A DNA stretch of 64,000 nt, taken from an uncultured virus (IMG/VR IMGVR_UViG_3300002835_000029) (Duplodnaviria; Heunggongvirae; Uroviricota; Caudoviricetes). The notes beneath the pieces were generated by a model. The model worked only from the letters and a program-made list of their open reading frames with translations. It had not been told where the DNA came from and did not search any database. The stretch spans positions 1 to 64,000 of IMG/VR virus record IMGVR_UViG_3300002835_000029, one strand, 5' to 3'. Below are positions 3,361-35,343 of the stretch, one piece after another (within the stretch, counting starts at the first letter, position 1; each line of letters begins with the position of its first letter). A program made the translations under genes and the position numbers.

Positions 3361-3429
3361 AATATTTGAAGTATGTTGTGGCATATTATTGGCACGATCT
3401 ATACTTTACATAGTAAGTAAAGTTAAAAG

Positions 3430-3959: not shown

Positions 3960-4181
3960 TATGAAAGCTACATTTGAATTTGATCTTCCAGAAGATCAGC
4001 GTGAGTATGACGTAATGAATCAAGCAATCCGTATGCAAAAAGTATTATGGGATTTAAGCGAAGCATTACGCACATGGGAAAAATATGGTGATCCATTTAC
4101 AGATGCCCGTGATGCTGTAGTCAAAATAAGAGAAGAGTTTTACAGAATACTTAACAATTATGAAGTGAATATTGATCTATA

Positions 4182-6285: not shown

Positions 6286-6627
6286 ATGAGAAATACACTA
6301 GTATCTATCCTTTTGATTTCGTGTTTAATATCTATCGCTTCTGTTTTTGCTTTTGATAATACAAACGAAAAGGTTTTAATCATATTTTCCGCCGATTGGT
6401 GTAAATACTGCCACATAGCTAAGAATGATATGAAGAATGACCCACAACTATCAGAGATTGTAAAAAATTATACCATCGTAGACGTAGATTTTGATGTTGA
6501 CAAAGACATCGTTGAAGGCTACAATATAAAGACGATCCCTGCCTTTGTGGTTTTCGAAAACGGTAAAGAGAAGGGAAGGAAGATTGGCTATAATGGGCCA
6601 AGCGGTTTAATAAACTTCTTAAAATAA
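6286..6627 (+). CDS. Thioredoxin-family protein with signal peptide
   Basis: FSADWCKYC CxxC, cis-Pro TIP motif, hydrophobic N-terminus ending VFA. Confidence 0.85.
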   Translation: MRNTLVSILLISCLISIASVFAFDNTNEKVLIIFSADWCKYCHIAKNDMKNDPQLSEIVKNYTIVDVDFDVDKDIVEGYNIKTIPAFVVFENGKEKGRKIGYNGPSGLINFLK

Positions 6628-8880: not shown

Positions 8881-9243
8881 ATGTTTAATTGGTTAAGAGA
8901 TAAAATATCTGACTATTCTAGATCGCCCAAGTGGTCTAACGTCAGGAAGGAACATTTAAAACATCAATCAATTTGTCAGGCGTGTAGGAGAAAAAACGAT
9001 CTACAAGTTCATCACATAATACCATATCATTTAGATCCAAGTAATGAATTAAATCCAGATAATTTAATCACATTATGCTCTGATTGTCATCTATTATTGG
9101 GCCATTTGATGGACTACAAAAGCTGGAATACAAATGTAGTCACTGACTGTGAACAAATATCACTCAAAATCAAGAATAGGCCATATAATGAACAAACTTA
9201 TCAACAACCTCGTAGTTGGATTTCTTATTGGTTTAATATCTAA
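8881..9243 (+). CDS. HNH endonuclease
   Basis: CQAC...VHHIIP...NLITLCSDCH. Confidence 0.85.
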   Translation: MFNWLRDKISDYSRSPKWSNVRKEHLKHQSICQACRRKNDLQVHHIIPYHLDPSNELNPDNLITLCSDCHLLLGHLMDYKSWNTNVVTDCEQISLKIKNRPYNEQTYQQPRSWISYWFNI

Positions 9244-19990: not shown

Positions 19991-20394
19991 ATATAATAGA
20001 TCAATCACTTGAAATAGCACTGAGCCTTTTACCTAAAGCCAAAGAGGAAAGACAAACTAAGAATAAATTTTTTCACTTTGCTTTTGGATACAAGAAAAAT
20101 AAACTTCTTGCAATAGGGCAAAACAATCCAGAGAAAACCCATACTCAAGCACTAGTATTAGCTAAAAGGTTCAATACAGATAGTGAATACCCTTACTTTC
20201 ACGCAGAAACTGATCTAATATCTCGTTTATGGGGTAAATATTATATAGATAATAGCCTCAAAATGGTTATTATAAGACTAAATAAGCGTGGCGAATTAAG
20301 ATGTAGTCAGCCGTGCGATAAGTGTGATAGAATAATGAGATCTCTAGGTATTAACAAAGTATGGTGGAGCATAGACAATGGATTCAATAAATAA
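19987..20394 (+). CDS. Zn-dependent deaminase (CDA superfamily)
   Basis: HAE...QPCDKC. Confidence 0.8.
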   Translation: MNIIDQSLEIALSLLPKAKEERQTKNKFFHFAFGYKKNKLLAIGQNNPEKTHTQALVLAKRFNTDSEYPYFHAETDLISRLWGKYYIDNSLKMVIIRLNKRGELRCSQPCDKCDRIMRSLGINKVWWSIDNGFNK

Positions 20395-20938
20395 CTTAGT
20401 TGGCATGAGAGTTTATTTAGTTGGTGCTATGGATAGAGTTCCAGACGGTGGAACTACTTGGCGTAAGCGAATAACTCCATATCTAAACGAACTAGGGGTA
20501 ACTGTCATTGACCCGTGCGACAAACCAATCAATGGGGTTATTGAAGATGAAGAGACTAGGCACTGGATAGAATACTACAAAGAGACAGAAAAGTATGAAA
20601 AGATCAAAGAGAAATTTGGTATAATACGCAGTGCAGATTTGCGATGTGTAGATATATCTGACTTCATTATTGCTCATATTGATCTTAATATTCATGCTTG
20701 TGGAACATACGAAGAGATAGTAACAGCTAATAGGGAGAAAAAGCCAGTTTTAATATGGTGCGAACAGGGTAAAAGCCAAGCACCCAATTGGTTATTCTTT
20801 ATGTTGCCACACGAACATATATTTAATTCTCTGAGCGAGGTATTAAACTATCTTAGCTATATAAATCAAGAAGAAGACGTAACAAAACTAAAACGATGGT
20901 TCTTTTTTAGGAATAACAAAATAAACTATGAATACTAA
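20378..20938 (+). CDS. Nucleoside 2-deoxyribosyltransferase / nucleotide N-glycosidase-like protein
   Basis: VYLVGAM, WR, DLRCVDISD, GTYEE. Confidence 0.8.
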   Translation: MDSINNLVGMRVYLVGAMDRVPDGGTTWRKRITPYLNELGVTVIDPCDKPINGVIEDEETRHWIEYYKETEKYEKIKEKFGIIRSADLRCVDISDFIIAHIDLNIHACGTYEEIVTANREKKPVLIWCEQGKSQAPNWLFFMLPHEHIFNSLSEVLNYLSYINQEEDVTKLKRWFFFRNNKINYEY

Positions 20939-22001
20939 AATTAATGTAATGGCCCCAATTAATCAGCTTGGTTACGGCGTATCATCCTTAAACATTATCA
21001 AAGAACTATCTAAATCCATAGAAGTTTCTTTATTCATGATAGGACAACCTCAAGTAACAAATCAAGAAGATGCCGACATAATCTCTAAATGTATAAAAAA
21101 TTCTCAGTTTTATGATTATAATGCCCCATGTATTAAAATATGGCATCAACATGATATGGCACAATTTGCTGGCAAAGGAACCAGAATAGGGTTTCCGATA
21201 TTTGAGTTGGATAAGTTTAATGATTTTGAAAAGCATCAACTTCAATCTTTAGATAGAGTGTTTGTATGTTCAGAATGGGCTAAGAAAATAGTATTAAATA
21301 ATACAACTATTGAAGAATCTAACGTTATAGTAGTCCCGCTGGGTGTTGATTCATCTATTTTTCAGCCGTCTGAAATGCCACAAAATAGTCCAACAAGATT
21401 TTTTAATTGTGGTAAATGGGAAATAAGAAAGGGGCATGATGTATTAGTTGATATATTTAACTCAGCGTTTAACGAAGATGATAATGTAGAACTATTCATG
21501 ATGTGCGAAAATCCTTTCTGCACAGAGCAGGAACAAAATGAATGGATAAATCTATATAAAAAGTCTAAACTGGGATCTAAAATACATATTATTCCACGAC
21601 AGAACACTCAGCAAGAAGTGTATAATATAATGTCCCAAACTCATTGTGGAATATTTCCAGCAAGAGCAGAGGGGTGGAATTTAGAGCTATTAGAAATGAT
21701 GGCTTGTGGAAAACGTGTAATAGCCACAGATTATTCTGCCCATACAGAATTTTGTAACTCTAATAATGCATTGTTAATACCTATAGAAGAAACCGAAACT
21801 GCATATGACGGTAAATGGTTTCACGGTCAAGGTAATTGGGCTAGGATAGATAATAGGGCCAAAAATATTGCTATAAAATATATGCAAAATATCCATGAAC
21901 TAAATATAACTAATAGTTTAACTGTTAACGAATATGGAATTACAACTGCTAAAAATTTTAGCTGGAAAAACACCGGGAGAAAAATATTAAATGTTATTTA
22001 A
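20928..22001 (+). CDS. GT4 (GT-B) glycosyltransferase
   Basis: GKWEIRKGHD, EGWNLELLEMMACG, TDYSAH. Confidence 0.88.
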   Translation: MNTKINVMAPINQLGYGVSSLNIIKELSKSIEVSLFMIGQPQVTNQEDADIISKCIKNSQFYDYNAPCIKIWHQHDMAQFAGKGTRIGFPIFELDKFNDFEKHQLQSLDRVFVCSEWAKKIVLNNTTIEESNVIVVPLGVDSSIFQPSEMPQNSPTRFFNCGKWEIRKGHDVLVDIFNSAFNEDDNVELFMMCENPFCTEQEQNEWINLYKKSKLGSKIHIIPRQNTQQEVYNIMSQTHCGIFPARAEGWNLELLEMMACGKRVIATDYSAHTEFCNSNNALLIPIEETETAYDGKWFHGQGNWARIDNRAKNIAIKYMQNIHELNITNSLTVNEYGITTAKNFSWKNTGRKILNVI

Positions 22002-22362
22002 TTTCTTCAAGAAAAAACCAGATAATGAACAAGTTTCAGAACCTAATGAAGTTTTAGCAAAAATAAGTTATATAGTTTCTAAAGGTTCAGATTCTACGAT
22101 AGTGGATGTAGAACTGGAGGATTATAGTGATGAATCTATTGAATCACTGTGTTATATAATCGACACTTTAGCAGAAGATAGGGCGATACTAGAAACTATG
22201 AATATAGTAAAAAATGCCCTTGTAGAAGAAGGTAGAGAAGATTGTCTAATTAAAATTTTCAATCTTATTAGTAAAGATACTAAAGCAAAAATCATAAATG
22301 GGCATAAAGATAGTAAGGCGGATGAACCTTGTATAAAACCGTCTGAAGTTTTCACAAAATAG
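21991..22362 (+). CDS. Hypothetical protein
   Basis: 123 aa ORF overlapping the upstream gene. Confidence 0.65.
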   Translation: MLFNFFKKKPDNEQVSEPNEVLAKISYIVSKGSDSTIVDVELEDYSDESIESLCYIIDTLAEDRAILETMNIVKNALVEEGREDCLIKIFNLISKDTKAKIINGHKDSKADEPCIKPSEVFTK

Positions 22363-22371
22363 GAGTCATAT

Positions 22372-22827
22372 ATGTCTAAAAAAATAGGATGGCAAAAATA
22401 TGAAGATTATATTGAAAAACAATTATCATGCCCCATATTACAGAATATAATACAGAATATGATGCCAGAAGCAGAAGAAGATATTTTGGGTGAAGAAGAC
22501 GATGACGATGATGAAGACGAATCATATGAAGATGAAGACAATAAAAAAGATATGATGTCAGCAGCTTTGCATAAGATGTTGCCACTCACTCCGCAGGTAA
22601 TAGATGATATATCTATGTTAGCTAATTTTGACTGCTGGATTGGTCACACAAACTTCGATATTACACCAGCCATAAAAAATAAACTCAATAAAATGCCCGG
22701 TATTGAGATACTAAAAATCTTTAGTCGTTATAGATTTTTTGTTGGTATAGGACAGATGTTTGATTTTCAGAATATAAGATTTGATATTGAACAAGAACTT
22801 ATAAAAGGAGAATTTGATGATGAGTAA
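22372..22827 (+). CDS. Hypothetical protein with acidic tract
   Basis: AGGAG SD; EEDDDDDEDE tract. Confidence 0.7.
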   Translation: MSKKIGWQKYEDYIEKQLSCPILQNIIQNMMPEAEEDILGEEDDDDDEDESYEDEDNKKDMMSAALHKMLPLTPQVIDDISMLANFDCWIGHTNFDITPAIKNKLNKMPGIEILKIFSRYRFFVGIGQMFDFQNIRFDIEQELIKGEFDDE

Positions 22828-23293
22828 TTGCATAGATGATAAGATACAGGTTGCCCTTAAGGATGAAAATATTGTTAAAATTATGAATAAGGCTTCTAAG
22901 AGATTTAGAAATCAATTAGATGCTGATTCTATAAAGACTTGCCAACTTAATGCGTTATGGAAAACATTCGTTAACTACAATGCAGAAAAGGGAGCTAAAT
23001 TTACAACTTATCTATATAAGGGCGTGTTTATTGAGTGCATGAAGGAGATTAAGTTTGCCAATAAAAATAAGTCTTTTGGAATGTTGCACCAAAATATAGC
23101 ATCCAATACAGATCCATTTTTTAGTATTGATCTAATGGACGAGTTTAAGAATTCAGAAGATAGGGATTTGATTGAAGATAGACTTAGCAATATGACTATA
23201 GCAGAAATATCTGAAAAACGTGGTAAAAATAGGGAAAGTATTAGACGTAAAATCCACAAACTTGCAGACAACATAAAAGATAAATTCTGTTAA
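22817..23293 (+). CDS. Phage RNA polymerase sigma factor (compact sigma70-like)
   Basis: Region 2-like ALWKTFVNYNAEKGAKFTTYLY; region 4 HTH MTIAEISEKRGKNRESIRRKI. Confidence 0.8.
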   Translation: MMSNCIDDKIQVALKDENIVKIMNKASKRFRNQLDADSIKTCQLNALWKTFVNYNAEKGAKFTTYLYKGVFIECMKEIKFANKNKSFGMLHQNIASNTDPFFSIDLMDEFKNSEDRDLIEDRLSNMTIAEISEKRGKNRESIRRKIHKLADNIKDKFC

Positions 23294-23295
23294 AT

Positions 23296-23302
23296 GTGTA
23301 TA
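23296..23302 (+). promoter_or_regulatory. GTGTATA candidate late promoter
   Basis: Immediately after the sigma gene stop and upstream of the structural/lysis block. Confidence 0.55.
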
Positions 23303-23377
23303 TAATTTTAGGAACTGGACTATAAAAGGATGCGGAATTATTACTTTGCAAATTTTATTTAATAAAAGGAGAATAAT

Positions 23378-23995
23378 ATGGCATCCCAAAAAGCAGTTTC
23401 TGCAAATGCATACAATAATGACGGTGGCGTTGTTCTAAATGGCGGTGCTGTTAGTGAAAATCTAACAGATCTATCACTTATCAACAATTTAGCTGACGTT
23501 CCGGGCTATGGTACAGTTGTAACTGAAGATACACCTACAGCCCCAAATAATTTTCGTGATCCACACGGTGTAACAAGGGCAAAAGAGGGTGGCACTTTTG
23601 CATATACTCCACCCGCTGGTAGCGAATTTCTATTAATGGCCGCTGGTGATACCAATGCTGGTAAAATCAATGGATCATCTTCAACTATTTTAACTATCCC
23701 CGGTGGTGCTACAGAAGCCGTAGTTAATAAGAATCTAAAGACTACTCAGTTTGGTTCATATGCTACAAGAACATTTAATGTTCTTGCAACTCCATCTAGT
23801 GGCAATTTCCCCGGTCTTACCAGAGGTACTGGTGCTGGTACTGCTGTAACTTATAGAGCTACCAGCGGTAACTTCCCAGCCGTTGATGATGCTGCAAGTA
23901 CTAGTAGAGCAGTTCCCGGTGAACTTACCTATAGATTTGGAGCAGCTTTACCAACTCGTAATGTTGCCTACAAGGCTAAAGATAGTAACGAATAA
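23378..23995 (+). CDS. Probable virion structural protein
   Basis: AAGGAG SD; Gly/Ala/Thr/Asn-rich, no Cys; downstream hairpin 24008..24046. Confidence 0.6.
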   Translation: MASQKAVSANAYNNDGGVVLNGGAVSENLTDLSLINNLADVPGYGTVVTEDTPTAPNNFRDPHGVTRAKEGGTFAYTPPAGSEFLLMAAGDTNAGKINGSSSTILTIPGGATEAVVNKNLKTTQFGSYATRTFNVLATPSSGNFPGLTRGTGAGTAVTYRATSGNFPAVDDAASTSRAVPGELTYRFGAALPTRNVAYKAKDSNE

Positions 23996-24069
23996 GTCGT
24001 TATTTTTGGATAAGTGCCTTTTGAGAAATCTTAAGGCACTTTATCCTTCTTTTTCCTACGGAGGCAATT

Positions 24070-24663
24070 ATGCTAGACATAAAAAGTCCAGAACATATCA
24101 CCTTTATATTTACTATCATTGGTGGTCTAGGAACATTTTTTAGCTTAATGTGGGTCAAGGTAATAAAACCAACAGTTAAATTTGTTAAAGGGCAGGAAGA
24201 AGTTGGTAGATCATTAGAAACAATCAAAAAAGAACTAACAACTAATGGTGGAAATAGCCTAAAAGACGCTATTGTAGACTTAAGATCTACCGTTAATAGG
24301 ATGGAAAAAAGACAAAAAGTTATAGAACAAAGAACAAAAGCCGCACTTCACTATAATGATGCGGCATTATTTGAAACAGATGATCATGGTAGACTAACTT
24401 GGACCAATAATAATTTTTATGAATTAACACAAGAAGTTATTAACAGTGTAGAAGGTTATGATTGGCTCAATTATATAAAAGAAGAAGATAGAGAAGATCT
24501 TTTTGATGAATTGAAATCTTGCTTAAAAATGAATAGAAAATTAGTCAAAACAGTACAAACAGTAGATGATAAGATAGTAAAAATGATGGGATTTCCATAT
24601 AGGATAAATGACAAGGAGCATGGTGGATTTTTAATAAGCATTTCTCAACTCAAGGAGATATAA
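24070..24663 (+). CDS. Single-TM protein with coiled coil (NGGNSLKD) and C-terminal PAS-like domain
   Basis: TM ITFIFTIIGGLGTFFSLMW; ALFETDDHGRLTWTNNNFYELT...VEGYDWLNYIKEEDRE matches the PAS pattern. Confidence 0.75.
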   Translation: MLDIKSPEHITFIFTIIGGLGTFFSLMWVKVIKPTVKFVKGQEEVGRSLETIKKELTTNGGNSLKDAIVDLRSTVNRMEKRQKVIEQRTKAALHYNDAALFETDDHGRLTWTNNNFYELTQEVINSVEGYDWLNYIKEEDREDLFDELKSCLKMNRKLVKTVQTVDDKIVKMMGFPYRINDKEHGGFLISISQLKEI

Positions 24664-24664
24664 G

Positions 24665-24886
24665 ATGTTAGATCTAAAAGTAGGTTCAAAAGCATTCTCA
24701 TTAAATACAACTGATCTTATTTCAGTTGGTAAGAACGCAGCATTAGTTGGTTTAGCCGCACTATTAACATATATTGGCGAAAATCTAACTAAGCTTGATC
24801 TTGGTAGCATGACAGCACTAATTGTGCCTGTTACAGTAGTATTAATTAACACAGTAGTTAAATGGGCAAAGGATAACTCAAAGTGA
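24665..24886 (+). CDS. Putative holin (two TM)
   Basis: 73 aa; two hydrophobic helices and a short charged C-terminus KWAKDNSK. Confidence 0.6.
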   Translation: MLDLKVGSKAFSLNTTDLISVGKNAALVGLAALLTYIGENLTKLDLGSMTALIVPVTVVLINTVVKWAKDNSK

Positions 24887-25803
24887 TGTTCAAGACACCG
24901 AAAGATTTATTAAAAGCCTATAAAGATGGCTTTGTAGGATCATACTGTGACCCAAAAGAGTTGGACAAGCTCTTAGGAGAACTGCCACATCCACTATTTG
25001 GTGTGGCAGCACATGATTTATATGGTACTGGAAAAGGAAAACTATCCCTACCGTTTAAGTCTCTCTTGAAGTTTGATCCCTCTTTTGGTCCATCAGAAAG
25101 GCAAGTCCAAGGAGATTGTGTTTCACATGCAACGCGAAATAGCGTAGATATTACACGCAGTTGTGAAATTATAAATGGACAACGAGAAGAGTTTGTGGCC
25201 CGTGGTGCTACTGAAGGTATTTATGGTTCACGCGGACACGGCGGTGAAGGTATGACTTGTGGTGGTGCTGCTAAATTCGTCCACCAAAATGGAGGAATAT
25301 TACTTCGTCAAAAGTACGGAGATTATGATCTTTCAACATATAGTGCTATTGGTGGCAGATGGGGTCGTACTGGTGTTCCAGAAGAATTAGTAAAAGCAGC
25401 AAAGAAACATCAAGTTAAGACTATCAGTTTAATTAACACAATAGATCAAGCCAGAGATGCAATAGCCAACGGTTATTCTATTAGTGTATGCAGTAATTCT
25501 GGATTTAGTTCTAGAAGAGATAAGAATGGTATTGCCGCCCGATCTGGATCATGGGGTCACGCGATGGCTTGGATTGGGATGGATGATACTCATGAAATTT
25601 ATAATGAAACACTATTCTTAGTCCAAAACTCTTGGGGGGTTTGGAATAATGGTGAGAAGCGTTTAGATCAACCAGATGGAAGTTTCTGGATAAGAGAACG
25701 AGATGCAGCAGAAATGTTAGCACAGAATGGCTCTTGGGTATTTAGTGATGTAGACGGCTTTCCTCCAAGAAAAGTAATTTGGACATTAAAAGATCAATTC
25801 TAA
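24886..25803 (+). CDS. Papain-family (C1) cysteine peptidase
   Basis: QVQGDCVSHA (Gln/Cys), WGHAM (His), VQNSWG (Asn). Confidence 0.85.
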   Translation: MFKTPKDLLKAYKDGFVGSYCDPKELDKLLGELPHPLFGVAAHDLYGTGKGKLSLPFKSLLKFDPSFGPSERQVQGDCVSHATRNSVDITRSCEIINGQREEFVARGATEGIYGSRGHGGEGMTCGGAAKFVHQNGGILLRQKYGDYDLSTYSAIGGRWGRTGVPEELVKAAKKHQVKTISLINTIDQARDAIANGYSISVCSNSGFSSRRDKNGIAARSGSWGHAMAWIGMDDTHEIYNETLFLVQNSWGVWNNGEKRLDQPDGSFWIRERDAAEMLAQNGSWVFSDVDGFPPRKVIWTLKDQF

Positions 25804-25816
25804 AAAGGGGTAAAAT

Positions 25817-26065
25817 ATGCCAATTTCAACAACAGATGTAATCACTAATGTAGTTTCTGGTAGAGAAACAATTCAAAACGGTTCAGCCGTTGTATATTGC
25901 TGGTTCGGAAAGCCAGTTAGTGGGAGTGGCAATTATCAAGCTCTTATAAGTCCATTTGAATATGAGAAATCTTATTCATATACAGCTATAGAAAACAGAC
26001 TAAAAGATAGATTTGATGACGTTACTTATTATACTACCGGATCTTCTGGCATATTAGGAGTTTAA
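25817..26065 (+). CDS. Small putative virion protein
   Basis: 82 aa ORF directly preceding the fibre gene. Confidence 0.55.
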   Translation: MPISTTDVITNVVSGRETIQNGSAVVYCWFGKPVSGSGNYQALISPFEYEKSYSYTAIENRLKDRFDDVTYYTTGSSGILGV

Positions 26066-26066
26066 G

Positions 26067-27572
26067 ATGGTTGTCACAAGAATACACCAATTACCATCTA
26101 GTTCCTCTATAACTCCAGACGATGTTTTGGTAATGGTAGATAATCCAGATGGAACACCTGTAACTAAAAAAATATTATGGAAGGATGTTGATGCACCATC
26201 TGGCACTATTACATATGGTCGCCGCAATAATCAGTGGGTTGATATTACATCTCCAGCTAATTTACAAATTCGTAGAGGAACATTAGCAGAAGTTAATGCA
26301 ATAACTCCATTAGAAGGTGAGCCTTTATGGGCTACCGACTCCAAAGTATTACGAATGGGTGATGGTATTACACAAGGAGGTGTGCCAATAAGTTTTTCTG
26401 AAAGCATACCTGCACTAACGACGACTATCACAGGGTCTACTCCAATATATTCAAGGAATGCAGCCCTTATTACTTTTCCTAAAAACATAATGACAATAAA
26501 TGGAAATGTGTTAACAGGAACAGGACCGTGGGTTGAAGGTTCGTGGCCCCTCTATAATAATCAAGATTTTGTTGATGGTAGAATAGCTACTATTTCATCC
26601 AACATAGAAGGTCTTACCGGTAATTTATTTTCTACTATGGGTACTGTCACTAATCTTACAAGCATATTACTAAATAATTTTAAATATATAAATGGAAATT
26701 TGTTTGATTCTACTACGATGAATAGTTTAACAACTCTGTCATTACCAGAAATTGTACATATTACTGGGAATTTTGGATTAACAGCAAATGCTCTAACGTC
26801 TTTTCAAATGCCAAAGCTCACTTATGCAAAATATTTATTATTTACTGGCTCAAACTTGACATCAATAAGCTTACCATTATTAAATACTATTGATTATTTT
26901 AATTTAACAGCAAACAGCTTAAGCTCTTTATCTCTACCATCATTACAGTATGTTGTTACTAGCAACGGTGGAAATTTTAATATCTCTTCGTCTTCTATGA
27001 CATCAATATCTATTCCATCGATAGTAGCGGTAGGGAGTTCTTTTTCTAGTACCATAACATTCACAACCCCCGTTTTACAAACACTAACTCTTCCTTCTCT
27101 TGGAACATGGAAAAGTTGTGGTTTGAATGTGTCTATAACTAATGCTTCGCTAAATCAAAGTAGTGTTGATAATTTATTAGCAACATTCGCATACATGGAT
27201 GGAACTAATGGAACAACATCTTATGGATCTCCTAATGCAAGAAGTATCAATATTAGTGGAGGGTCTAGCGCATCTCCTTCAAATTTAGGCAGTATTACTA
27301 CCAATGGTTCAAATTTCGTTTGTTCTGGTACAACTTGTACTGTAAATTTAACTAATCATGGATATCTCAGTGGAGATGTATTAAGAGTCAGTGGAATTAC
27401 AACAGCTACAAATGCAAACAGGTATGCTGTTATTACGGTAACTAATAGTAATCAATTTACTTATACTATATCATCTCAAACAGCAACTGGTGCTGGCACA
27501 GCCACTATCATTAAAGCTGGCTCTAGTGCAAAAGCATTAGTAACCAGAGGAGTAACACTAACTACTAACTAA
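26067..27572 (+). CDS. Tail fibre/adhesin: Mtd_N-like domain plus LRR/receptor-L-like repeats
   Basis: LQIRRGT..P.EGEP...D...RMGDG.T.GG; repeated LTSISLP-L units. Confidence 0.7.
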   Translation: MVVTRIHQLPSSSSITPDDVLVMVDNPDGTPVTKKILWKDVDAPSGTITYGRRNNQWVDITSPANLQIRRGTLAEVNAITPLEGEPLWATDSKVLRMGDGITQGGVPISFSESIPALTTTITGSTPIYSRNAALITFPKNIMTINGNVLTGTGPWVEGSWPLYNNQDFVDGRIATISSNIEGLTGNLFSTMGTVTNLTSILLNNFKYINGNLFDSTTMNSLTTLSLPEIVHITGNFGLTANALTSFQMPKLTYAKYLLFTGSNLTSISLPLLNTIDYFNLTANSLSSLSLPSLQYVVTSNGGNFNISSSSMTSISIPSIVAVGSSFSSTITFTTPVLQTLTLPSLGTWKSCGLNVSITNASLNQSSVDNLLATFAYMDGTNGTTSYGSPNARSINISGGSSASPSNLGSITTNGSNFVCSGTTCTVNLTNHGYLSGDVLRVSGITTATNANRYAVITVTNSNQFTYTISSQTATGAGTATIIKAGSSAKALVTRGVTLTTN

Positions 27573-27573
27573 T

Positions 27574-28785
27574 ATGTATCCATCTGTAAATCATCCAATT
27601 AACTGCGGTTTAGCATCAACCGTAAACTTCAATAATTATGCTAAAAAAAGGATTAGCGATAGATCTTTTGACATTGTAGGTAATGTCATAAATAGAATTA
27701 CAGTGTCTGGCTCTAATTCTATAGCTTATGATAAAGATAAAATGCTCAATAGGCAAACTAGTGCTGAATATGTTACAGATTTTACTATACAAAATATATT
27801 CAATCAATCTACATTCAATAGCCTTGTTAAATTTTCATCATCCAATCCATCTGTATTAACTATAAATAATAATGGTGGAATAGCTACGTATCAGAATGAT
27901 GGATATTGTACTATTACAGCAATATCTAATGATGGTGAAACATCAGCAATAGGACTGTATGCTCAAAAAACATATTCTGGAAATATAGACTCTTTTAACA
28001 GTTGGGCTAATAATTCATTAGCAAAAAATACTACTGATGCCATCGACAGTCGTATAAGCAACAAAGTTCCCGGTTACTCAAAACCTATTTTTTCTAATAT
28101 AAACAACTCATCTAATATTTATATTAGAAATACAGGATGTTGGGTTTCAGACATAGATTTAACGTGCATAAGTCCATGGAACTCATATGGTGGCAATAAT
28201 ATGGCGGGAGTACTTATTTCTCCTCGTCATGTTTTATTTGCCGCCCACTATCAACCACCAGTAGGAACAACAATAAGATATGTCACATCAGACAATATTG
28301 TTATTAATAGAACTATTGAAACATTGCAAACAGATCCTTCATACACTCCATATTATCCAGATATAACTATTGGTGTATTAAATTCTGATGTTCCTAATAG
28401 TATATCATTTGCTAAAATTTTGCCAGAAAACTGGACATCGTATTTACCTTCTATTTCTCATCCAATAAAACTTCCAGTTTTAATAACGGATCAAGAAAAA
28501 AAAGCTATGGTTGCTGATTTATATGCAATATCTAATCAAGTTGTACTGATGCGCCCGACAAATTCTTTTAGATTATCATTTTATGAAGATATTATTGGCG
28601 GAGATTCTGGTAGTCCATCATTTCTAATAATTAACAATCAATTAGTAGTTCTTACAGTTTGGACTAGTTCTAGTTTGGGTACATTTATAACTCAAAGAAA
28701 AAATGCTATCAACACAATGATGTCTCAGCTTGGCGGTGGGTATCAACTAACTGAAATAGATCTTTCATCTTTTTTATCTTATTAG
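27574..28785 (+). CDS. Ig-like (Big_2) plus trypsin-like serine protease
   Basis: FSSSNPSVLTI..G.CTITA; LISPRHVLFAAHY, DITIG, GGDSGSP. Confidence 0.8.
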   Translation: MYPSVNHPINCGLASTVNFNNYAKKRISDRSFDIVGNVINRITVSGSNSIAYDKDKMLNRQTSAEYVTDFTIQNIFNQSTFNSLVKFSSSNPSVLTINNNGGIATYQNDGYCTITAISNDGETSAIGLYAQKTYSGNIDSFNSWANNSLAKNTTDAIDSRISNKVPGYSKPIFSNINNSSNIYIRNTGCWVSDIDLTCISPWNSYGGNNMAGVLISPRHVLFAAHYQPPVGTTIRYVTSDNIVINRTIETLQTDPSYTPYYPDITIGVLNSDVPNSISFAKILPENWTSYLPSISHPIKLPVLITDQEKKAMVADLYAISNQVVLMRPTNSFRLSFYEDIIGGDSGSPSFLIINNQLVVLTVWTSSSLGTFITQRKNAINTMMSQLGGGYQLTEIDLSSFLSY

Positions 28786-28794
28786 GAGTTTAAT

Positions 28795-30099
28795 ATGGGT
28801 GTTGTAAAAATAACGCAGTTACCATCAGTATCATCTGTAACAGATGATGATCTTTTTGTTATGGTGGATAGCCCAAATGATCAAGCAATAACAAAAAAAG
28901 TTTCTGCCAGCACATTAAGAAGTTCTGTACTAAATCAAGCTGCAACTTTGCAATTAAAGCAGGGTCTTGATTCAGAAAGACTATTGGTAACTCCATCGGT
29001 AGCAGAACCGTTATGGACAACCGATACTAAAAAACTATATGTTGGTGATGGATCTACAGTTGGCGGAATAGTAATCTCATCCCCAATAGTTGAAATCTCT
29101 GGTAATAATACTACAAAATTTAACAATATATTAGGAAGCGGAAATCTATGCTTGGGATCAGGAAACTCAATAATTTCATCACTGCTTGGTTCAAGTTTTA
29201 ACTATAATGGTATTTATCACGCTAATACTTGTACTGCAAGTGGTTATAATATAACAATTTTATCTGGTAATGGCTGTGTTGGTAGCGGTGTTTATACATC
29301 TATTCTTAATGGAGATAGAAATACTGCTGGATCACCAGCCTCTAGTAACGCTACCATAATCACTGGTTTAAGAAATACTGTAACGTCTCCTAACTATGGG
29401 TTGATATGTAATGGAACTTTTAATATGAGCAGAGGAACTTATTCTTCTATTATAAATGGATTTGGTCATTCTGCTATTTCAGATTATACTTTTATTGGAA
29501 ATGGGAATCAAAACACAGCAACTGCTAACTATTCTAGCATCATTAACGGTCAAAACAATATTGCTAGCGGAATATATTCATCTATTTTAGGTGGTATATC
29601 CGCAAAAACTACTTTATATGGAGAAGTGGCACAGGCTGGTGGTAGTTTTGCTTCTGCTGGAGATGCACAGCGATCAACCATAGTGCTAAGAACTGAAACC
29701 TCAAGTAATACATCAAATGTAATTTTAACGGCAAATGGATCTGCATCTCTAGTAACATCTCCAAGTAACACGACTTCAAGAAATTTTATATTTTTACCAG
29801 ATAAAACTACGGTAAATTTTAACATACAAATTAGTGCTTATAATGACACGGATACTTCTTCAGCCGTATGGAATTTTGTTGGAGGTATTAAAAGAGGGGT
29901 TGGTGCTAGTACTACCGCTTTGATTGAAACACCCACTGAAACAAGCTGGAAAGATGCTGGTATGACTTCGGCTTTAGCCAGCGTAGCAGCAGATGCTACA
30001 AATGGAGGATTGTCTATTAGAGTTACTGGATTAGCAACTAAAAATATTAGATGGGTAGCGGCAGTAAATTACTGTCAAGCTAGCTATGGAACACCATAA
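28795..30099 (+). CDS. Tail fibre/adhesin: Mtd_N-like domain plus beta-helix repeats
   Basis: LQLKQG..P..AEP..TTDTKKLYVGDG.T.GG; repeated YSSIING..N.A units. Confidence 0.7.
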   Translation: MGVVKITQLPSVSSVTDDDLFVMVDSPNDQAITKKVSASTLRSSVLNQAATLQLKQGLDSERLLVTPSVAEPLWTTDTKKLYVGDGSTVGGIVISSPIVEISGNNTTKFNNILGSGNLCLGSGNSIISSLLGSSFNYNGIYHANTCTASGYNITILSGNGCVGSGVYTSILNGDRNTAGSPASSNATIITGLRNTVTSPNYGLICNGTFNMSRGTYSSIINGFGHSAISDYTFIGNGNQNTATANYSSIINGQNNIASGIYSSILGGISAKTTLYGEVAQAGGSFASAGDAQRSTIVLRTETSSNTSNVILTANGSASLVTSPSNTTSRNFIFLPDKTTVNFNIQISAYNDTDTSSAVWNFVGGIKRGVGASTTALIETPTETSWKDAGMTSALASVAADATNGGLSIRVTGLATKNIRWVAAVNYCQASYGTP

Positions 30100-31397
30100 T
30101 GATAGAAGCTCAAAATATACCTCTCAATTGTGGTTCTATATCTGAGAATTCATCTTATCTGTTTAAAAAACCAGATATTGGTGGAGATAGAGTAAAAATC
30201 ACAGCACAGCCCCAAGATAGGATATTAGTTTCTACTGGCTCTGGTTATACTACGAATTATGACGCTACAGTATTCAGATCTACTAATTCATCTACTATAA
30301 CTGATTTTAATATAATATTATATAAACAAGATGATATATCAGTTACTGTATATAGTACAGATAACAGTATTTTATCAAATTTAAATCCTAACAACTATAT
30401 ATGTTCTGGAGTGCCAACGGGAAGCACTTCTAAAAGAGCAGTAAAAATTATAGCAAGTGGAATAAATACATCTGATTTTAACATTGCAGAAGTAAATGTC
30501 AATTGTAATATAGGTGGACAAATAGATGCTTTTTGTGAATTTACATCTGGTAGTTTAGCAAAAAATTGTTCTGATAGCGTCGATAATAGACTATTAAATA
30601 AAAACCCAACTATAGCAAAAGATATTTATAGTACTCAAAACCATTCAACTTCTACATACGTTAGAAATACTAATTGTTGGGCTTATGATTTAGATTTAAC
30701 TTGCATAAGTCCTTGGAATACAACTGGATCAAATACTAGAGCTGGAACTCTAATTAGCCCAAGTCACTTAGTTTTTGCTACTCATTATGAAATAGATATC
30801 GGGGCTAAAGTTAGATTTGTTACTAATGATAATGTCGTTATAGAAAGAACATTAATAGACAAAATGCCAACATTGACTAGTGATATTTATTTGGGACTTT
30901 TAGATTCTGACGTACCAAATTCCATTAGTTTTGCCAAATTACTTCCTTCTAATTGGTCTATATATTTACCTACAATTTATAGAAATAAAAGTGGTACTTA
31001 TACCATCTACAGACTTCCAATGCTATCTTTAGATCAAGAAGAAAAAGCTTTAGTAAAAGAATTTCTATACGTGGACCCAACGGGCAGTTCCGCATATACA
31101 CAGCAACCAACACAAAATTATCTTGATCCCAATAATAGTTATTATAATACATACCCAAATAGAATATTATTTCATGAATCAATAATCGGTGGAGATAGTG
31201 GTAACCCATCATTTTTAATCATCAATAATCAATTGGTTTTGATAATAACATGGACCGGACCAGACAGTGGACCATTCTATAGTAATTTTATAAGTACATT
31301 AAATACTAATATGAATCTACTTTGGACAAGAAATAATAGATCTGGTAGTTCATATACTGTAACAACAATTGATTTGTCTTCATTCACTTTATACTAG
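30099..31397 (+). CDS. Trypsin-like serine protease, paralog of 27574..28785
   Basis: DLTCISPWN, LISPSHLVFATHY, DIYLG, GGDSGNP. Confidence 0.8.
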   Translation: MIEAQNIPLNCGSISENSSYLFKKPDIGGDRVKITAQPQDRILVSTGSGYTTNYDATVFRSTNSSTITDFNIILYKQDDISVTVYSTDNSILSNLNPNNYICSGVPTGSTSKRAVKIIASGINTSDFNIAEVNVNCNIGGQIDAFCEFTSGSLAKNCSDSVDNRLLNKNPTIAKDIYSTQNHSTSTYVRNTNCWAYDLDLTCISPWNTTGSNTRAGTLISPSHLVFATHYEIDIGAKVRFVTNDNVVIERTLIDKMPTLTSDIYLGLLDSDVPNSISFAKLLPSNWSIYLPTIYRNKSGTYTIYRLPMLSLDQEEKALVKEFLYVDPTGSSAYTQQPTQNYLDPNNSYYNTYPNRILFHESIIGGDSGNPSFLIINNQLVLIITWTGPDSGPFYSNFISTLNTNMNLLWTRNNRSGSSYTVTTIDLSSFTLY

Positions 31398-31405
31398 GAA
31401 TTACA

Positions 31406-31711
31406 ATGAATAAATATATACTATTAGCATTATTATTAGCTGGATGCTCAAATAATATGTTTTCTGTCAATCCAGAAGATATAACAAATATGTACTCTTC
31501 TTACGTAACGGAGTGGCAAGAGAAGTGTAAAGCAGCTTTTGATAACGCAGAAAAAGAGGTTTTTAAGGTAGATCCAAAACCACAGCCCGTTGTGGATACT
31601 GATCCAGACCCAGCCAAATGCGTTTGCAAAGGCACGGGAATAATAGTTCAAGGAGATGGTCATAAAACAGTGTGTCCATTTCATGCAAAGACCACTAATT
31701 TAAAGAGGTAA
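31406..31711 (+). CDS. Lipoprotein with C-terminal Cys/His motif
   Basis: Lipobox LLLAGC; CVCKGTG....GDG....CPFH. Confidence 0.75.
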   Translation: MNKYILLALLLAGCSNNMFSVNPEDITNMYSSYVTEWQEKCKAAFDNAEKEVFKVDPKPQPVVDTDPDPAKCVCKGTGIIVQGDGHKTVCPFHAKTTNLKR

Positions 31712-31715
31712 TAAG

Positions 31716-31991
31716 ATGGAATCGTGGAATGTTTGGTTGATTGTAATTGCTTTACTTATATTAGCAACTAACTTTGTAGATATTCCATACTGGGTATCTA
31801 GATTATTTGCTAAGTCTAAAGTCAAAGTTGTAGAGAACAAAGAAGAGGGATTTTTGGAAATAGTTAGTTTATGGTATCAGCTAAAAAATAAATGCGATGA
31901 ATACCATTTAACCGTAGCGTCTGAGAAATTAGACGAAGTATTTCCACTATTAAACAAAGTAATTGAGGACAACGATGGAAAAGTTTCTTAA
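31716..31991 (+). CDS. N-terminal TM protein
   Basis: WLIVIALLILA. Confidence 0.65.
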   Translation: MESWNVWLIVIALLILATNFVDIPYWVSRLFAKSKVKVVENKEEGFLEIVSLWYQLKNKCDEYHLTVASEKLDEVFPLLNKVIEDNDGKVS

Positions 31992-32442
31992 GGTTAGAAA
32001 TCTTATAGCACTAGTTTTACTAGGTTTAGCTTTATACAAACCGGTATTAAATTTAATTCCAGTTTTTCCAAAGCCCGATGTTGCTATTCTAAATATAGAT
32101 CGCCCAAGCGATGAAATAATAGAACTTGTTAAACCGGTATCATCATTAATTACTGACCCTACCGATAGAGCAAAGATGGCTATATATAGTCAAGAGTTTG
32201 CTAGTAGGGTAAAAACCTATGACGCTCAGTTACAACAAGTAAATGATGTGCTAGCATTATCTGCAAGTGGATTCTTTGAAGGGGCTATGAACGATAAGTA
32301 TAAAGATTTAGATGTCGCTATCATAGATTTAATTACTTCTGCCGCTGGTGGTGATGACAATCATAAACTAACAGATGAAGAAAAAAATAAAATCTCAGAT
32401 AGATTTATGGGCTTGGCTTGGTCACTAATACAGAAAAATTAA
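31975..32442 (+). CDS. N-terminal TM/signal protein, helical
   Basis: GAGG SD; LIALVLLGLALY. Confidence 0.65.
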   Translation: MEKFLKVRNLIALVLLGLALYKPVLNLIPVFPKPDVAILNIDRPSDEIIELVKPVSSLITDPTDRAKMAIYSQEFASRVKTYDAQLQQVNDVLALSASGFFEGAMNDKYKDLDVAIIDLITSAAGGDDNHKLTDEEKNKISDRFMGLAWSLIQKN

Positions 32443-32443
32443 T

Positions 32444-33082
32444 ATGGCAATACCAATTTTACAAATTAAACAGATTGTTGATTTTATCTTTTCAAAGAAT
32501 GGTTATGACATTAAAAATCTAAATATAAGTTTCCCCCAACCATTAGATATTAAAGTCATAAAAGATACCTCTGAAAATATCATTCTTTCATTTACTGAAT
32601 CTCTCCCAAAAGTCACTTGGAAAAAGTACATAAAGTTAAGTGCTTACGTACAGGGCTTGACTTTGGGTAAAGATGGTGGTACACTAAAGTTGAGATACCT
32701 TCCAGATATCAAGTTTTCCTATGATGAAAACTCAGAAACTCTGTTTGGTGGTTCTTTCGACACTAGCGACATAGAAGCTCAGATTGATGCTGAATACGCA
32801 GACGAAGAAAGAAACTTTTTAGCCAAAAAATGTTTGCAGTATGGCAACGAATGGGCTACAATAGCTAGCCAAGGCGGAATGAACTTTGCGGAGTGTGACA
32901 AATATAGCAAGAGGCAACTAAAAAGAGACTGCAAAGACTTCGTAATGTCTAATGTAAAACAAGATCCAGAAGTAATTCATGGGTCTGTTATACTATCATT
33001 CTTGCTAATCTATGTTGTTTTGCCCGTTATATTAAAGTTTATACTTGAAAGATTGTTTAGAAAACTTTTTAACGAATATTGA
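32444..33082 (+). CDS. Protein with C-terminal TM anchor
   Basis: GSVILSFLLIYVVLPVILKFIL. Confidence 0.65.
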   Translation: MAIPILQIKQIVDFIFSKNGYDIKNLNISFPQPLDIKVIKDTSENIILSFTESLPKVTWKKYIKLSAYVQGLTLGKDGGTLKLRYLPDIKFSYDENSETLFGGSFDTSDIEAQIDAEYADEERNFLAKKCLQYGNEWATIASQGGMNFAECDKYSKRQLKRDCKDFVMSNVKQDPEVIHGSVILSFLLIYVVLPVILKFILERLFRKLFNEY

Positions 33083-33108
33083 TAGTTGATTAAAAGAAAG
33101 AGGGGATT

Positions 33109-35343
33109 ATGCGCGTTCAAAAAAGGAACGGTAGTTTCGAAGTCTATACAGTTGAGAAGATTCATAAGGTTGTAGAGTGGGCGATAAAAGACATCGCTAA
33201 CGTTTCTTGGTCAGATATAGAGATGAATGCTAACCTCTCTTTAAAAGATGGAATAACCACAGAAGAAATCCATCAAATCTTAATCAAGTCTGCTAACGAT
33301 CTAACTTCTCCCAGCAAGCCAAACTATCAATATGTTGCATCTAGACTATTGAATATGTCCCTTAGAAAAGATCTCTGGGAAAACCATGATGCTCCACCAA
33401 GTTTGTTGTCTCATATATCTAGTAATGTAAAAGCTGAAATATATGATGAAACTCTATTATCAAAGTGGAGTAAAGAACAAATAGATCAGATTGAAAAGTT
33501 CGTGGATCATGATAGAGATTATTTATATACTTATGCTGGATTACAGCAAATGATAGATAAGTATCTTATTAAGAATAGGTCTACTGGACAGATGTATGAA
33601 ACACCACAGTTTGCTTATGTAGCAATCGCTATGTCTTTATTTGATACCGTAGAGGAAGTAGAAGAGGCATATGAATGTTTCTCTACATTTAAGATTAATC
33701 TTCCAACTCCAATCATGGCTGGAGTAAGAACTAAAATCAAACAGTTTGCTAGCTGTGTTCTAGTAGACGTTGAAGATGATCTTGATTCTATATTTTCAAG
33801 CGTACACGCTGTTGGAAAGTATACTGCAAGAAGGGCTGGCATTGGTTTAAATATTGGCCGCATTCGCCCAATTAACTCTAGCATTAGGGGCGGCGAAGTA
33901 ATTCATACTGGTCTTATCCCATACTTAAAGATATTTGAGTCAACGGTTAAAGCAACAAGTCAGAATGGTATTCGTGGTGGTTCTGCTACTGTGCATATTC
34001 CATTTTGGCACTATGAAATTGAAGATATAATGACATTAAAGAATAACGCGGGAACTGACGATAATAGAGTAAGAAAGCTAGATTATTCTGTTCAGTTTAA
34101 CAAGTTATTCTATGAGCGTTTAATTAAAAATGAAGACATTACACTAATGAGTCCTCATGAAACTGGTGGTCTTTATAGTTCTATGAACAATAATGAAGAC
34201 TTCAAAAAGCTATATGAAAAATATGAAAACGCTCGCTACGTAAAGATGAAGAAGAAAATTAACGCAAGAAAGCTTGCTGAAATTTTTACCAAAGAGAGAT
34301 TAGAAACTGGTCGCATTTATGTTATGAATATTGATAATGCTAATGAGCATGGATCATGGGATGCCCCAGTTTACATGAGTAATCTATGTCAAGAAATTAT
34401 CCATCCAACTAAACCAATATCATCTATAGATGACAAAGAAGGCGAAATTGGTATTTGTATTCTGTCAGCATTAAACCTACTTGAACTGGAAGATAACAAG
34501 GACATAGAAAAAGCTTGCTCTATTGCTGTAAAGTCTTTAGAATCTATTATTGATTATCAAGATTATCCAGTAGCGGCTGGTGAAAACTTTACAAAGAATC
34601 GTAGATCACTTGGAATTGGTATTACTAATTTTGCTGCATTTTTAGCAAAGCACAAGCTAAAATATGATGATGCCGAAACATTAAGATTAGTTCATGAAAT
34701 CATGGAAAAAATTCAGTGGTACTTACTAAATGAGTCCTGCAAACTTGCTGAACTCAAGGGTCCATGTAATAAATTTAATGAGACTAAATATTCTCGCGGA
34801 TTGCTTCCAATCGATTGGTACAAAAAAACAGTTGACGAACTGGTTAAGCCAGAGTATATTATGGATTGGGAGGGTTTGAGAGCTAGGATCAAAATTCATG
34901 GTCTAAGACACTCTACTCTGACTGCTATAATGCCCTGTGAGTCCTCTAGCGTCATCCAGAACAGCACAAATGGAATTGAACCTGTCCGTAGCCTCATGTC
35001 TTATAAAAAGGCTAAGAACGGCATCCTCAAGCAATTAGTGCCAAATTATGCTTCTCGTAAAAATTACTATACTTTAGCGTGGGAAATGCCAAACAACAAA
35101 GCAATATTAAATATTTGTGCAGTGTTACAAAAATTTGTTGATATGAGCATAAGTGTTAATTTATACTATAATTATTCCCATTATCCTGACGGCAATATTC
35201 CTTTGAGTATTTTGATCAAAGATCAGATACAGGGGTATAAATATGGTGTAAAGAACTTTTATTATTGCAATACGCCAGATTCTGATGGTAATACTGAAAA
35301 AGATTTGTTATCTACCTGTGAGGGTGGTTCTTGTGCAATATAA
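33109..35343 (+). CDS. nrdA: Ribonucleotide reductase class Ia alpha subunit
   Basis: ATP-cone VQKRNG, QFASCVL, SNLCQEI, C-terminal CEGGSC. Confidence 0.96.
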   Translation: MRVQKRNGSFEVYTVEKIHKVVEWAIKDIANVSWSDIEMNANLSLKDGITTEEIHQILIKSANDLTSPSKPNYQYVASRLLNMSLRKDLWENHDAPPSLLSHISSNVKAEIYDETLLSKWSKEQIDQIEKFVDHDRDYLYTYAGLQQMIDKYLIKNRSTGQMYETPQFAYVAIAMSLFDTVEEVEEAYECFSTFKINLPTPIMAGVRTKIKQFASCVLVDVEDDLDSIFSSVHAVGKYTARRAGIGLNIGRIRPINSSIRGGEVIHTGLIPYLKIFESTVKATSQNGIRGGSATVHIPFWHYEIEDIMTLKNNAGTDDNRVRKLDYSVQFNKLFYERLIKNEDITLMSPHETGGLYSSMNNNEDFKKLYEKYENARYVKMKKKINARKLAEIFTKERLETGRIYVMNIDNANEHGSWDAPVYMSNLCQEIIHPTKPISSIDDKEGEIGICILSALNLLELEDNKDIEKACSIAVKSLESIIDYQDYPVAAGENFTKNRRSLGIGITNFAAFLAKHKLKYDDAETLRLVHEIMEKIQWYLLNESCKLAELKGPCNKFNETKYSRGLLPIDWYKKTVDELVKPEYIMDWEGLRARIKIHGLRHSTLTAIMPCESSSVIQNSTNGIEPVRSLMSYKKAKNGILKQLVPNYASRKNYYTLAWEMPNNKAILNICAVLQKFVDMSISVNLYYNYSHYPDGNIPLSILIKDQIQGYKYGVKNFYYCNTPDSDGNTEKDLLSTCEGGSCAI

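Follow-up and report, generated by a model that had tools for sequence, protein, structure and literature searches.

A xylellain-type cysteine peptidase in a membrane-protein module of uncultured aquatic phages and its possible part in host lysis

Positions 24,070 to 25,803 of the IMG/VR virus record IMGVR_UViG_3300002835_000029 hold three adjoining genes, which encode a membrane-anchored protein with a PAS domain (the PAS protein), a small two-helix membrane protein (tm73) and a cysteine peptidase (pep). The window analysed here is the first 64 kb of this linear record, which is 128,858 bp long and 84% complete according to CheckV, and which comes from an uncultured, aquatic phage with a genome of about 165 kb. 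On the basis of its sequence and structural model, pep is a signal-less C1A cysteine peptidase of the xylellain type, with predicted peptidase activity. It is the best-conserved gene of a block of membrane and exported proteins, and it likely acts from the periplasmic side. The module probably opens the host envelope, and among the explanations considered host lysis fits best as its purpose, at about even odds. The initial annotation had read the three genes as a sensor-gated lysis cassette with a holin and a protease. Of that reading the PAS fold, the peptidase, the gene coupling and the lack of a canonical lysin stand, whereas the identity of the holin, the limitation to three genes and a general gating by a sensor do not. 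The three genes, as taken from the list of open reading frames (ORFs), are:

24070..24663, + strand: the PAS protein, 197 aa
24665..24886, + strand: tm73, 73 aa
24883..25803, + strand: pep, a 306-aa ORF with its probable start at the ATG at 24886, as in homologues

The gap between the PAS gene and tm73 is 1 nt, and the TGA of tm73 shares a base with the ATG of pep. The tight coupling proposed earlier is therefore borne out, and it is kept in the relatives, where the PAS gene, tm73 and pep occur together in 59 of 74 loci. The three genes open an array from 24070 to 33109 in which no gap exceeds about 15 nt and which includes fibre-like genes.

The peptidase and its family

The catalytic residues of pep follow the papain order of glutamine (for the oxyanion hole), cysteine, histidine and asparagine. 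Among 57 sequences, reaching down to 32% identity, Q74, C79 and H226 are invariant, N249 is conserved in at least 90% and S250 is nearly invariant. In the family profile, GDCvSh is aligned with the cysteine region of papain and HA...NSWG with its histidine and asparagine region. Hydropathy analysis gave neither a hydrophobic segment nor a signal peptide. The description of pep as a C1 peptidase with an intact Gln/Cys/His/Asn set and no signal peptide was thus correct.

The structural evidence agrees with this assignment. The AlphaFold2 (AF2) model of pep, with a predicted local distance difference test (pLDDT) score of 95.2, has the two-lobed papain fold. Foldseek returned 253 PDB matches at E<=0.001, and those listed are C1A enzymes. 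The best structural match is xylellain of Xylella fastidiosa (3OIS), with a Foldseek E-value of 5.9e-11 and, in VIA, a Z of 21.5 and a root-mean-square deviation (rmsd) of 2.9 A over 231 residues. Procathepsins and propapain come after it, and the VIA matches have Z values of 17-21.5 over 195-249 residues. When the pep profile was compared with the PDB sequences, 98 were found at E<=1, with papain-family enzymes among the 60 listed (caricain at E 2e-5). The Pfam model PF00112 scored pep below its cut-off (18.9 bits against 20.7, E 0.0017), and 12 homologues of about 300-400 aa matched no Pfam family at E<=0.01. We account for this by the pep family being a distant branch that is barely seen by the C1 model. 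In the VIA alignments the zymogens start at model residues 4-8 and the mature enzymes at 31-51, and so the first 50 or so residues of pep probably form a short pro-segment.

Xylellain and the "short bacterial" C1A type resemble pep in their size and their Gln/Cys/His/Asn set, and xylellain likewise has a short N-terminal region in place of a classical long propeptide. The two differ in several respects. Their identity is only 18-20%, pep sits in a membrane-protein module, and its family includes fused or exported forms with tm159-type, Cys-motif or thioredoxin-like parts (described below) and hosts inteins. Xylellain-type C1A genes have been acquired by Myoviridae and Siphoviridae, and in the available part of the 2023 survey that describes this, the phage copies carry no assigned function (PMC10380794).

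The family is large. The search at 90% identity gave 1348 relatives of pep, and the exhaustive representative search gave 1532 clusters at 50% identity with E<=0.001. The contigs that carry them come from uncultured lake and ocean phages and reach about 170 kb. The locus counts given in this paper were taken from 80 IMG/VR loci, several of which are duplicates. In these loci pep is 64-100% identical to the window copy, compared with 25-60% for the neighbour genes.

Many pep homologues are 640-1040 aa long owing to inteins with LAGLIDADG endonucleases. Intein or homing-endonuclease domains are present in 114 of the 120 listed longer homologues, including alleles that are 97% identical to the pep of the window. 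The junctions, as read in the homologues P0241, P0243, P0256, P0391 and P0392, lie between D78 and C79 (so that the catalytic cysteine is the +1 residue), between H226 and residue 227, and between M228 and residue 229. As the window copy is free of inteins while 97%-identical alleles contain one, their presence is polymorphic among close phages, and their position at catalytic residues points to a functional, strongly conserved enzyme. These insertions on the catalytic Cys and His offer a natural marker for the spread of inteins among aquatic phages.

Solitary, signal-less homologues with about 38-39% identity were also found in Mucilaginibacter gilvus (L120), M. pankratovii (L123) and a Balneolaceae metagenome-assembled genome (L117). 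Their neighbours are either GT87, GT2 and polysaccharide deacetylase genes, or agmatine deiminase and CN-hydrolase genes.

The wider module and the PAS protein

The other genes that bear on the module are listed below. The block from p82 to p212 follows pep directly, while the thioredoxin-like gene and p205 lie upstream of the three genes.

25817..26065, + strand: p82, a small soluble protein that adjoins pep in closer relatives; no Pfam or PHROG match
26067..31397, + strand: fibre-like insert of four genes, from Mtd_N and Big_2 Pfam matches and the translations
31406..31711, + strand: lipo101, a predicted, Pro-rich lipoprotein (MNKYILLALLLAGC) with the motif CxCxGxGxIxxGDGHxTxCPxH
31716..31991, + strand: tm91, 91 aa, with an N-terminal transmembrane (TM) helix
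31963..32442, + strand: tm159, N-terminally anchored with a helical ectodomain, probable start at the ATG at 31975, probably of type II topology
32444..33082, + strand: p212, with a hydrophobic tail at its C-terminus; it closes the block, ahead of a ribonucleotide reductase gene
6286..6627, + strand: secreted thioredoxin-like protein with WCKYC and a signal peptide; Pfam Thioredoxin, E 7.2e-13
23378..23995, + strand: p205, a Gly/Ala/Thr-rich protein of 205 aa with no family match; context rather than a proven part of the module

The extent of the module is best seen in relatives. In L048, the contig of a distant relative, four genes for small membrane or exported proteins come after pep, and three of these proteins have matches in the window: lipo101 (E 7.7e-15), tm91 (a 98-aa protein in L048, E 1.7e-4) and tm159 (149 aa in L048, E 3.2e-27). 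Relatives such as L010, L018, L020, L029-L033 and L038 have pep-(p82)-lipo101-tm91-tm159-p212 in an unbroken row, with the position of p212 kept in L029 too, and hence the 5.3-kb fibre cluster of the window is a variable insert. Across the loci, the insert between p82 and lipo101 ranges from 0 to about 5.5 kb, and the fibre cluster is absent in many relatives.

Upstream of pep, the 74 loci with sufficient room contain the PAS gene with tm73 (59), tm73 only (3), a glycosyltransferase gene (9) or none of these (3). Downstream, where at least 3 kb was available in 74 loci, a lipo101 homologue was found in 60 and a detectable tm159 in 41. The protein tm159 is the most widely conserved partner of pep. 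The three-gene cassette first proposed is too narrow, since the most widely conserved core consists of pep, an exported partner of the tm159 type and a Cys-motif protein, the latter two encoded downstream of the original three genes. A survey of the lipo101 family took in 48 distinct sequences. Several of them end in a thioredoxin-like domain with WCxPC, and many relatives have a plain signal or anchor in place of the lipobox.

The protein tm73 has a strong hydrophobic segment at residues 44-68 and a weaker one at 24-39 by hydropathy, followed by the charged C-terminus KWAKDNSK, and it is conserved across 46 distinct sequences. It thus has the small size, TM segments and charged C-terminus expected of a holin. 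In the ESM Atlas, the clusters closest to it bear the name "Holin family protein" (score 0.95), which is a lead from a language model only. The gene is directly upstream of pep in 63 of the 80 loci. In the remaining loci, one is cut at its 5' end and all 16 that are untruncated have tm62, a two-helix protein of 60 aa, downstream of pep. The tm73 and tm62 families show no detectable kinship (hhalign probability 0.25%) and are therefore treated as analogous rather than homologous, and tm62 matches no known holin family either. Holins, too, are seen to be exchanged for unrelated proteins of similar shape.

The site at which pep works is indicated mainly by its homologues. In P0279, P0295 and P0300 the peptidase is preceded by a hydrophobic anchor at the N-terminus and a tm159-like domain; P0279 has in addition the CxxCxGxG Cys motif at the C-terminus of the peptidase, and P0300 ends in a CPPC thioredoxin-like domain. 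Both the Cys motif and the CPPC domain are present in P0316, which is N-terminally incomplete. By BLASTP, P0279 matches tm159 (E 2e-6) and lipo101 (E 4e-8). Export signals were recognised by eye in two further homologues, a twin-arginine signal at the start of P0258 and a lipobox at that of P0327, and Schlesneria encodes a 573-aa protein of the arrangement TM-peptidase-TM-thioredoxin. The partners are also fused with each other: a tm159-like region is joined to the Cys motif in L080, and the Cys motif to a WCxPC domain in seven loci. In L029 the last gene of the module encodes a secreted thioredoxin. In Planctomycetota prophages a tm159-like gene overlaps the start of pep; this kinship was seen by eye, and BLASTP found no similarity between the Planctomycetota protein and tm159. 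The charges flanking the anchors, again read by eye, place the domains of these proteins outside the cytoplasm.

From these fused and signal-bearing homologues we infer that pep works in the periplasm with exported partners. In the window, lipo101 carries a lipobox and a Pro-rich region and tm159 an N-terminal anchor, and domains of both are those fused to the peptidase elsewhere. The thioredoxin-like protein of the window shows only low similarity to the corresponding domains of the fusions (E 0.001-0.011), and by analogy it is possibly a detached accessory of the module. Complex prediction for pep with the tm159 ectodomain (residues 40-159), made without controls, gave scores of 0.51, 0.00 and 0.00; the median is below the mark, and the result speaks neither for nor against binding. 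An ESM Atlas comparison of tm159, for which the Atlas record starts at residue 5, gave scores of at most 0.80, which is the level of chance.

The PAS protein has one hydrophobic segment (residues ~9-32, by hydropathy). Its AF2 model (pLDDT 82.9) consists of a helix from residue 7 to 94 and a PAS fold from 99 to 193, with strands at 99-103, 109-112, 158-164, 169-178 and 184-193 and helices between them. Foldseek found 231 PDB matches to the PAS domain at E<=0.001, and those listed are PAS or LOV domains. The best listed include RsLOV, FixL and ARNT PAS-B, with E-values around 1e-5 and an rmsd of about 3 A over some 107 columns, and the TM-score on the target reaches 0.74. The Pfam PAS models stayed below their cut-offs (PAS_10 was best, with 17.5 bits against 22.1, and four PAS-type families had E-values of 0.0066-0.063), and a profile of the PAS-protein alignment found no PAS chain among the PDB sequences. 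The assignment thus rests on the predicted fold, which confirms the PAS domain first suggested from the sequence.

No output domain is present in the PAS protein. The juxtamembrane motif ExxxNGGxSxKD is invariant in the alignment; within it, NGGNSLKD occupies residues 59-66, and N59, G60, G61, S63, K65 and D66 are invariant in 33 sequences. The initial annotation had linked NGGxSxxD to holin-adjacent phage membrane proteins. This is not upheld, as a tblastn search of 50,697 phage records with residues 1-95 as the query yielded just one match, at E = 7. Invariant polar and Cys/Met residues occur in the long helix of the PAS domain (S150, C151, M154 and R156), and H94, Y95, W111 and N113 are invariant as well. 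The pattern is suggestive of a bound ligand or cofactor, with which these residues would be compatible. From the charge distribution, the protein probably has its N-terminus outside and its PAS domain facing the cytoplasm.

Possible host lysis and the alternatives

If the module serves lysis, the following course of events would be expected. The peptidase would be made in the cytoplasm without a signal peptide, probably with a short N-terminal pro-segment and in a latent form, and would reach the periplasm, most likely through lesions made by the co-translated tm73. There it should work with the tm159 ectodomain, lipo101 and the exported thioredoxin-like protein, partners which, judging from the gene fusions, may dock pep and keep its catalytic thiol reduced. 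By cleaving a peptide or protein on which the cohesion of the envelope depends, it would likely bring about host lysis, standing in for a muralytic endolysin, none of which is recognisably encoded by the phage clade. The PAS protein would be a membrane-anchored accessory that possibly tunes the timing of tm73 in an antiholin-like manner. The full combination, in which large phages of a globally abundant aquatic clade would have a latent protease in place of the endolysin, a new holin family, docking and reducing partners with a Zn-ribbon-like Cys-motif protein among them, and, in one lineage, timing by a PAS domain that senses the redox or energy state as the host dies, is improbable.

By the standard account, double-stranded DNA phages lyse their hosts with a holin and a peptidoglycan hydrolase, and with spanins as well in Gram-negative hosts. 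As in the S-R-Rz/Rz1 cassette of lambda, the gene for a soluble enzyme that lacks a signal is coupled to that for a small membrane protein with two helices. In the present module a predicted lipoprotein and a membrane protein of probable type II topology are also encoded nearby. Some homologues have the tm159 domain and the Cys motif within the chain of the enzyme, and so docking or activation partners are suggested rather than a membrane-spanning spanin. Endolysins occur in signal-less, membrane-anchored and signal-bearing classes, and the homologues of pep likewise include all three, which recalls the exported endolysins with a signal-arrest-release (SAR) sequence or a signal peptide. The differences from a canonical cassette are that pep is a C1A proteinase and not a muramidase, transglycosylase, amidase or known peptidoglycan endopeptidase, and that tm73 is in no known holin family. 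The CHAP and NlpC/P60 domains of phage lysins also use Cys-His catalysis in a papain-like fold, as does pep. Unlike them, pep contains NSWG, a motif specific to C1A, and its matches are to cathepsins and papain rather than to CHAP. In BFVD, two phage proteins with C1-like domains are annotated as "Peptidoglycan binding-like" and "N acetylmuramidase (Fragment)" (ranks 17 and 22).

No conventional lysis enzyme was recognised. For the 128 proteins scanned with PHROG, the lysis category consisted of RIIA and RIIB only. Pfam found no muralytic domain in 118 proteins of the record or in 87 ORFs from the part of G001, a near-identical complete relative, that is absent from the record. Amidase_2, Phage_lysozyme, SLT, M23, NlpC/P60, CHAP and M15_4 each matched none of five genomes, four of them complete, while control genomes were matched. 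The absence of a muramidase or amidase that had been noted for the window therefore holds there, and it extends to the rest of the record and the four complete relatives.

Several observations weigh against a role of pep in lysis. To our knowledge no C1A peptidase cuts peptidoglycan; C1A enzymes are proteinases that cut ordinary L-peptide bonds, and no peptidoglycan-binding domain was found in pep. The Pfam scans did not extend to 21 window ORFs already named by PHROG and to two G001 ORFs that reach across locus borders. Furthermore, no virion-associated lysin was recognised in these phages, and so the muralytic enzymes of the clade may be invisible to Pfam and PHROG, which weakens the argument from the missing endolysin. 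As for tm73, it belongs to no PHROG family and none of 10 members matched a Pfam holin family at E<=1; the holin-like two-TM architecture noted at the outset is thus present, and membership in a holin family is not, which leaves tm73 holin-like by architecture only. With its weakly hydrophobic first helix it could also be a small-hole protein, impassable for a 34-kDa enzyme. The identity of 64-100% for pep across the clade is well above the usual conservation of endolysins, and the block is placed in the replication and nucleotide-metabolism arm, between sigma-factor-like and ribonucleotide reductase genes, rather than where the structural arm ends. The solitary copies in Bacteroidota lie in apparently non-phage chromosomal contexts without the partner genes, and in two Planctomycetota prophages the pair of tm159-like gene and pep is located between capsid and cement-protein genes. 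The PAS gene, finally, is missing from 15 of the 74 loci.

Three other explanations share parts of this evidence. A non-lytic remodelling of the envelope, in which the periplasmic protease would cut a host receptor, porin, pilus or tether during infection, relies on the same periplasmic evidence as the lysis reading. Its purpose could be superinfection exclusion, prevention of the re-adsorption of progeny to debris, or preparation of the envelope. The location of the block in the non-structural arm agrees with it, and the high conservation would suit a conserved protein substrate of a proteinase. We nevertheless consider it improbable. A signal-less enzyme needs a membrane lesion to leave the cytoplasm, which is itself lethal, a small two-helix protein stands beside pep in every complete locus, and other lysis enzymes were not found in the five genomes. 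Less probable again is a cytoplasmic or virion-related protease, active in head or fibre maturation or in the degradation of host proteins, with the membrane proteins as unrelated neighbours. The missing signal peptide of pep, the adjacent fibre-like genes and p205, and the solitary signal-less copies in Bacteroidota chromosomes would all fit such an enzyme, as would the Planctomycetota prophages L108 and L111, where pep is found among head genes, just after a capsid-fusion gene and with a portal gene upstream (L108) or a cement-protein gene downstream (L111). The fused and signal-bearing homologues, on the other hand, put the domain outside the cytoplasm, a tm159-like gene accompanies pep even in the prophages, and the fibre cluster is a variable insert that many relatives lack. 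In G001 a ClpP gene (E 3.5e-22) adjoins TerL, which is the usual arrangement for a prohead protease. The role in head maturation is covered by this protease, and pep as the prohead protease was rejected as the main reading.

The remaining alternative keeps lysis and gives the PAS protein command over it: by sensing a small molecule or the redox or energy state, it would directly gate the holin and the release of the protease. The predicted PAS fold, the close spacing of the three genes and their joint occurrence, the invariant ExxxNGGxSxKD motif and the residues compatible with a ligand or cofactor speak for such gating. The sub-threshold Pfam scores and the profile that found no PAS chain speak against it, as does the distribution of the gene. 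Besides the 15 loci without it, similar searches found 360 relatives of the PAS protein compared with 1348 of pep. In L029 and L048 the p205 homologue is directly followed by a TM-coiled-coil gene (106-109 aa) that lacks the PAS domain, and in L048 this gene stays beside p205 while pep and its partners are about 4.5 kb upstream, next to a glycosyltransferase gene. The PAS protein is therefore an optional, lineage-specific elaboration and not a required part, and sensor gating, as the initial annotation proposed it for the module, is not supported. We regard direct gating as unlikely, and it is to the same degree doubtful that the PAS protein controls the timing of lysis at all. A possible parallel is T4, in which the antiholins RI and RIII are reported to act on the holin T during lysis inhibition (PMC11413866). 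A membrane-anchored accessory encoded with the lysis genes could set the timing in a similar way here. The sensing by T4 RI is periplasmic and involves no PAS domain, in contrast to the PAS domain described here, which is predicted to face the cytoplasm.

Literature searches brought up no account of a lysis module based on a C1A protease, no pairing of PAS and holin, and no inteins in genes of the papain type. A very large phage family with no recognisable hydrolase keeps a protease-centred membrane module under unusually strong constraint. Should the protease be the lysis effector, it would represent a new class of phage lysis effectors and a new enzymatic route to envelope rupture. It would indicate a proteinaceous weak point of the host envelope, provide a family of possible enzybiotic-type reagents, and present a case of a cysteine enzyme that needs a reduced state in the periplasm. 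If timing by the PAS domain were also true, the effector class would have a built-in intracellular sensor. If, on the contrary, the module is not for lysis, the route by which these phages lyse their hosts remains to be explained.

The phage record and minor observations

All confident genes between 1 and 64 kb are on the + strand. PHROG and Pfam scans assign to the window RIIA and RIIB, ribonucleotide reductase, dUTPase, PhoH, a UvsX-like recombinase, DnaB and a primase, and a split DnaE-type polymerase and many glycosyltransferases are also encoded there. The rest of the record is the structural arm, on the - strand. G001 is 166,604 bp long, has terminal repeats and is collinear with the record, and as it is complete, about 33 kb must be absent from the present record. 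Among GenBank phages (50,697 records), no match was found to positions 20000-32000 by megablast or to pep by tblastn, and a search with the polymerase gave only relatives with less than 34% identity. The polymerase gene (49157-53016) is divided into two ORFs, of 541 aa and 533 aa, which are separated by an ORF resembling an exonuclease subunit (50775-51455). Genes for HNH or homing endonucleases are dispersed in the window at 7373, 8881, 35285, 40952, 45439 and 62410, the one at 35285 lying between genes for ribonucleotide reductase subunits.

The p205 gene is followed by a terminator-like hairpin of 9 bp, seen by eye, with a T-run, and has the extended -10-like motif GTGTATATAAT upstream; the gene may be strongly expressed. 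After each of its homologues comes a TM-coiled-coil gene, in some cases with a PAS domain and in others lacking it. The motif GTGTATAT precedes p205, the thioredoxin gene and three genes in the structural arm. It was considered as a marker of expression timing and rejected, since it resembles a general extended -10 element and says nothing about when expression takes place. Scans with promoter and terminator consensus sequences performed no better than shuffles (38 promoter-like sites compared with 54 expected).

In the fibre-like insert, Mtd_N matches lie in 26067-27572 (E 1.8e-7) and 28795-30099 (E 8.4e-7), while the products of 27574-28785, which also contains Big_2, and 30099-31397 have trypsin-like ends (AAHY or ATHY, then GGDSGSP or GGDSGNP). 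By these motifs, they may be receptor-degrading or self-processing tail proteins. A separate trypsin-family protein of 267 aa is encoded at 9149-9952 (PF00089, E 1.9e-17). Counted together with pep, both trypsin-like proteins of the fibre cluster and the ClpP of the complete relative, it brings the protease-like genes of this type of phage to at least five. Another ORF, of 123 aa, at 165174-165545 of G001 (L094:5174-5545), has a weak match to Guanylate_cyc_2 (E 0.0004), a family which we take to be a member of the papain-like clan, and this ORF possibly represents a second small gene of the cysteine-peptidase-like kind.

The glycosyltransferase genes number at least eight, with positions in the window at 20928, 47208, 53380, 54042, 55709, 56814 and 60465. 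The first of them, a GT4 gene (20928-22001), is close to pep in all lineages and is the gene directly upstream of pep in the 9 loci mentioned above. A GDP-mannose 4,6-dehydratase is encoded at 139051-139701 of G001. This set of genes suggests glycosylation of the virion, the DNA or the envelope. Lastly, three DUF1501-like genes with twin-arginine signals stand beside the module in L048 (positions 3-4274). Such genes are typical of Planctomycetota and Verrucomicrobiota, and together with the homologues in Planctomycetota prophages they may hint at the host range of some lineages.

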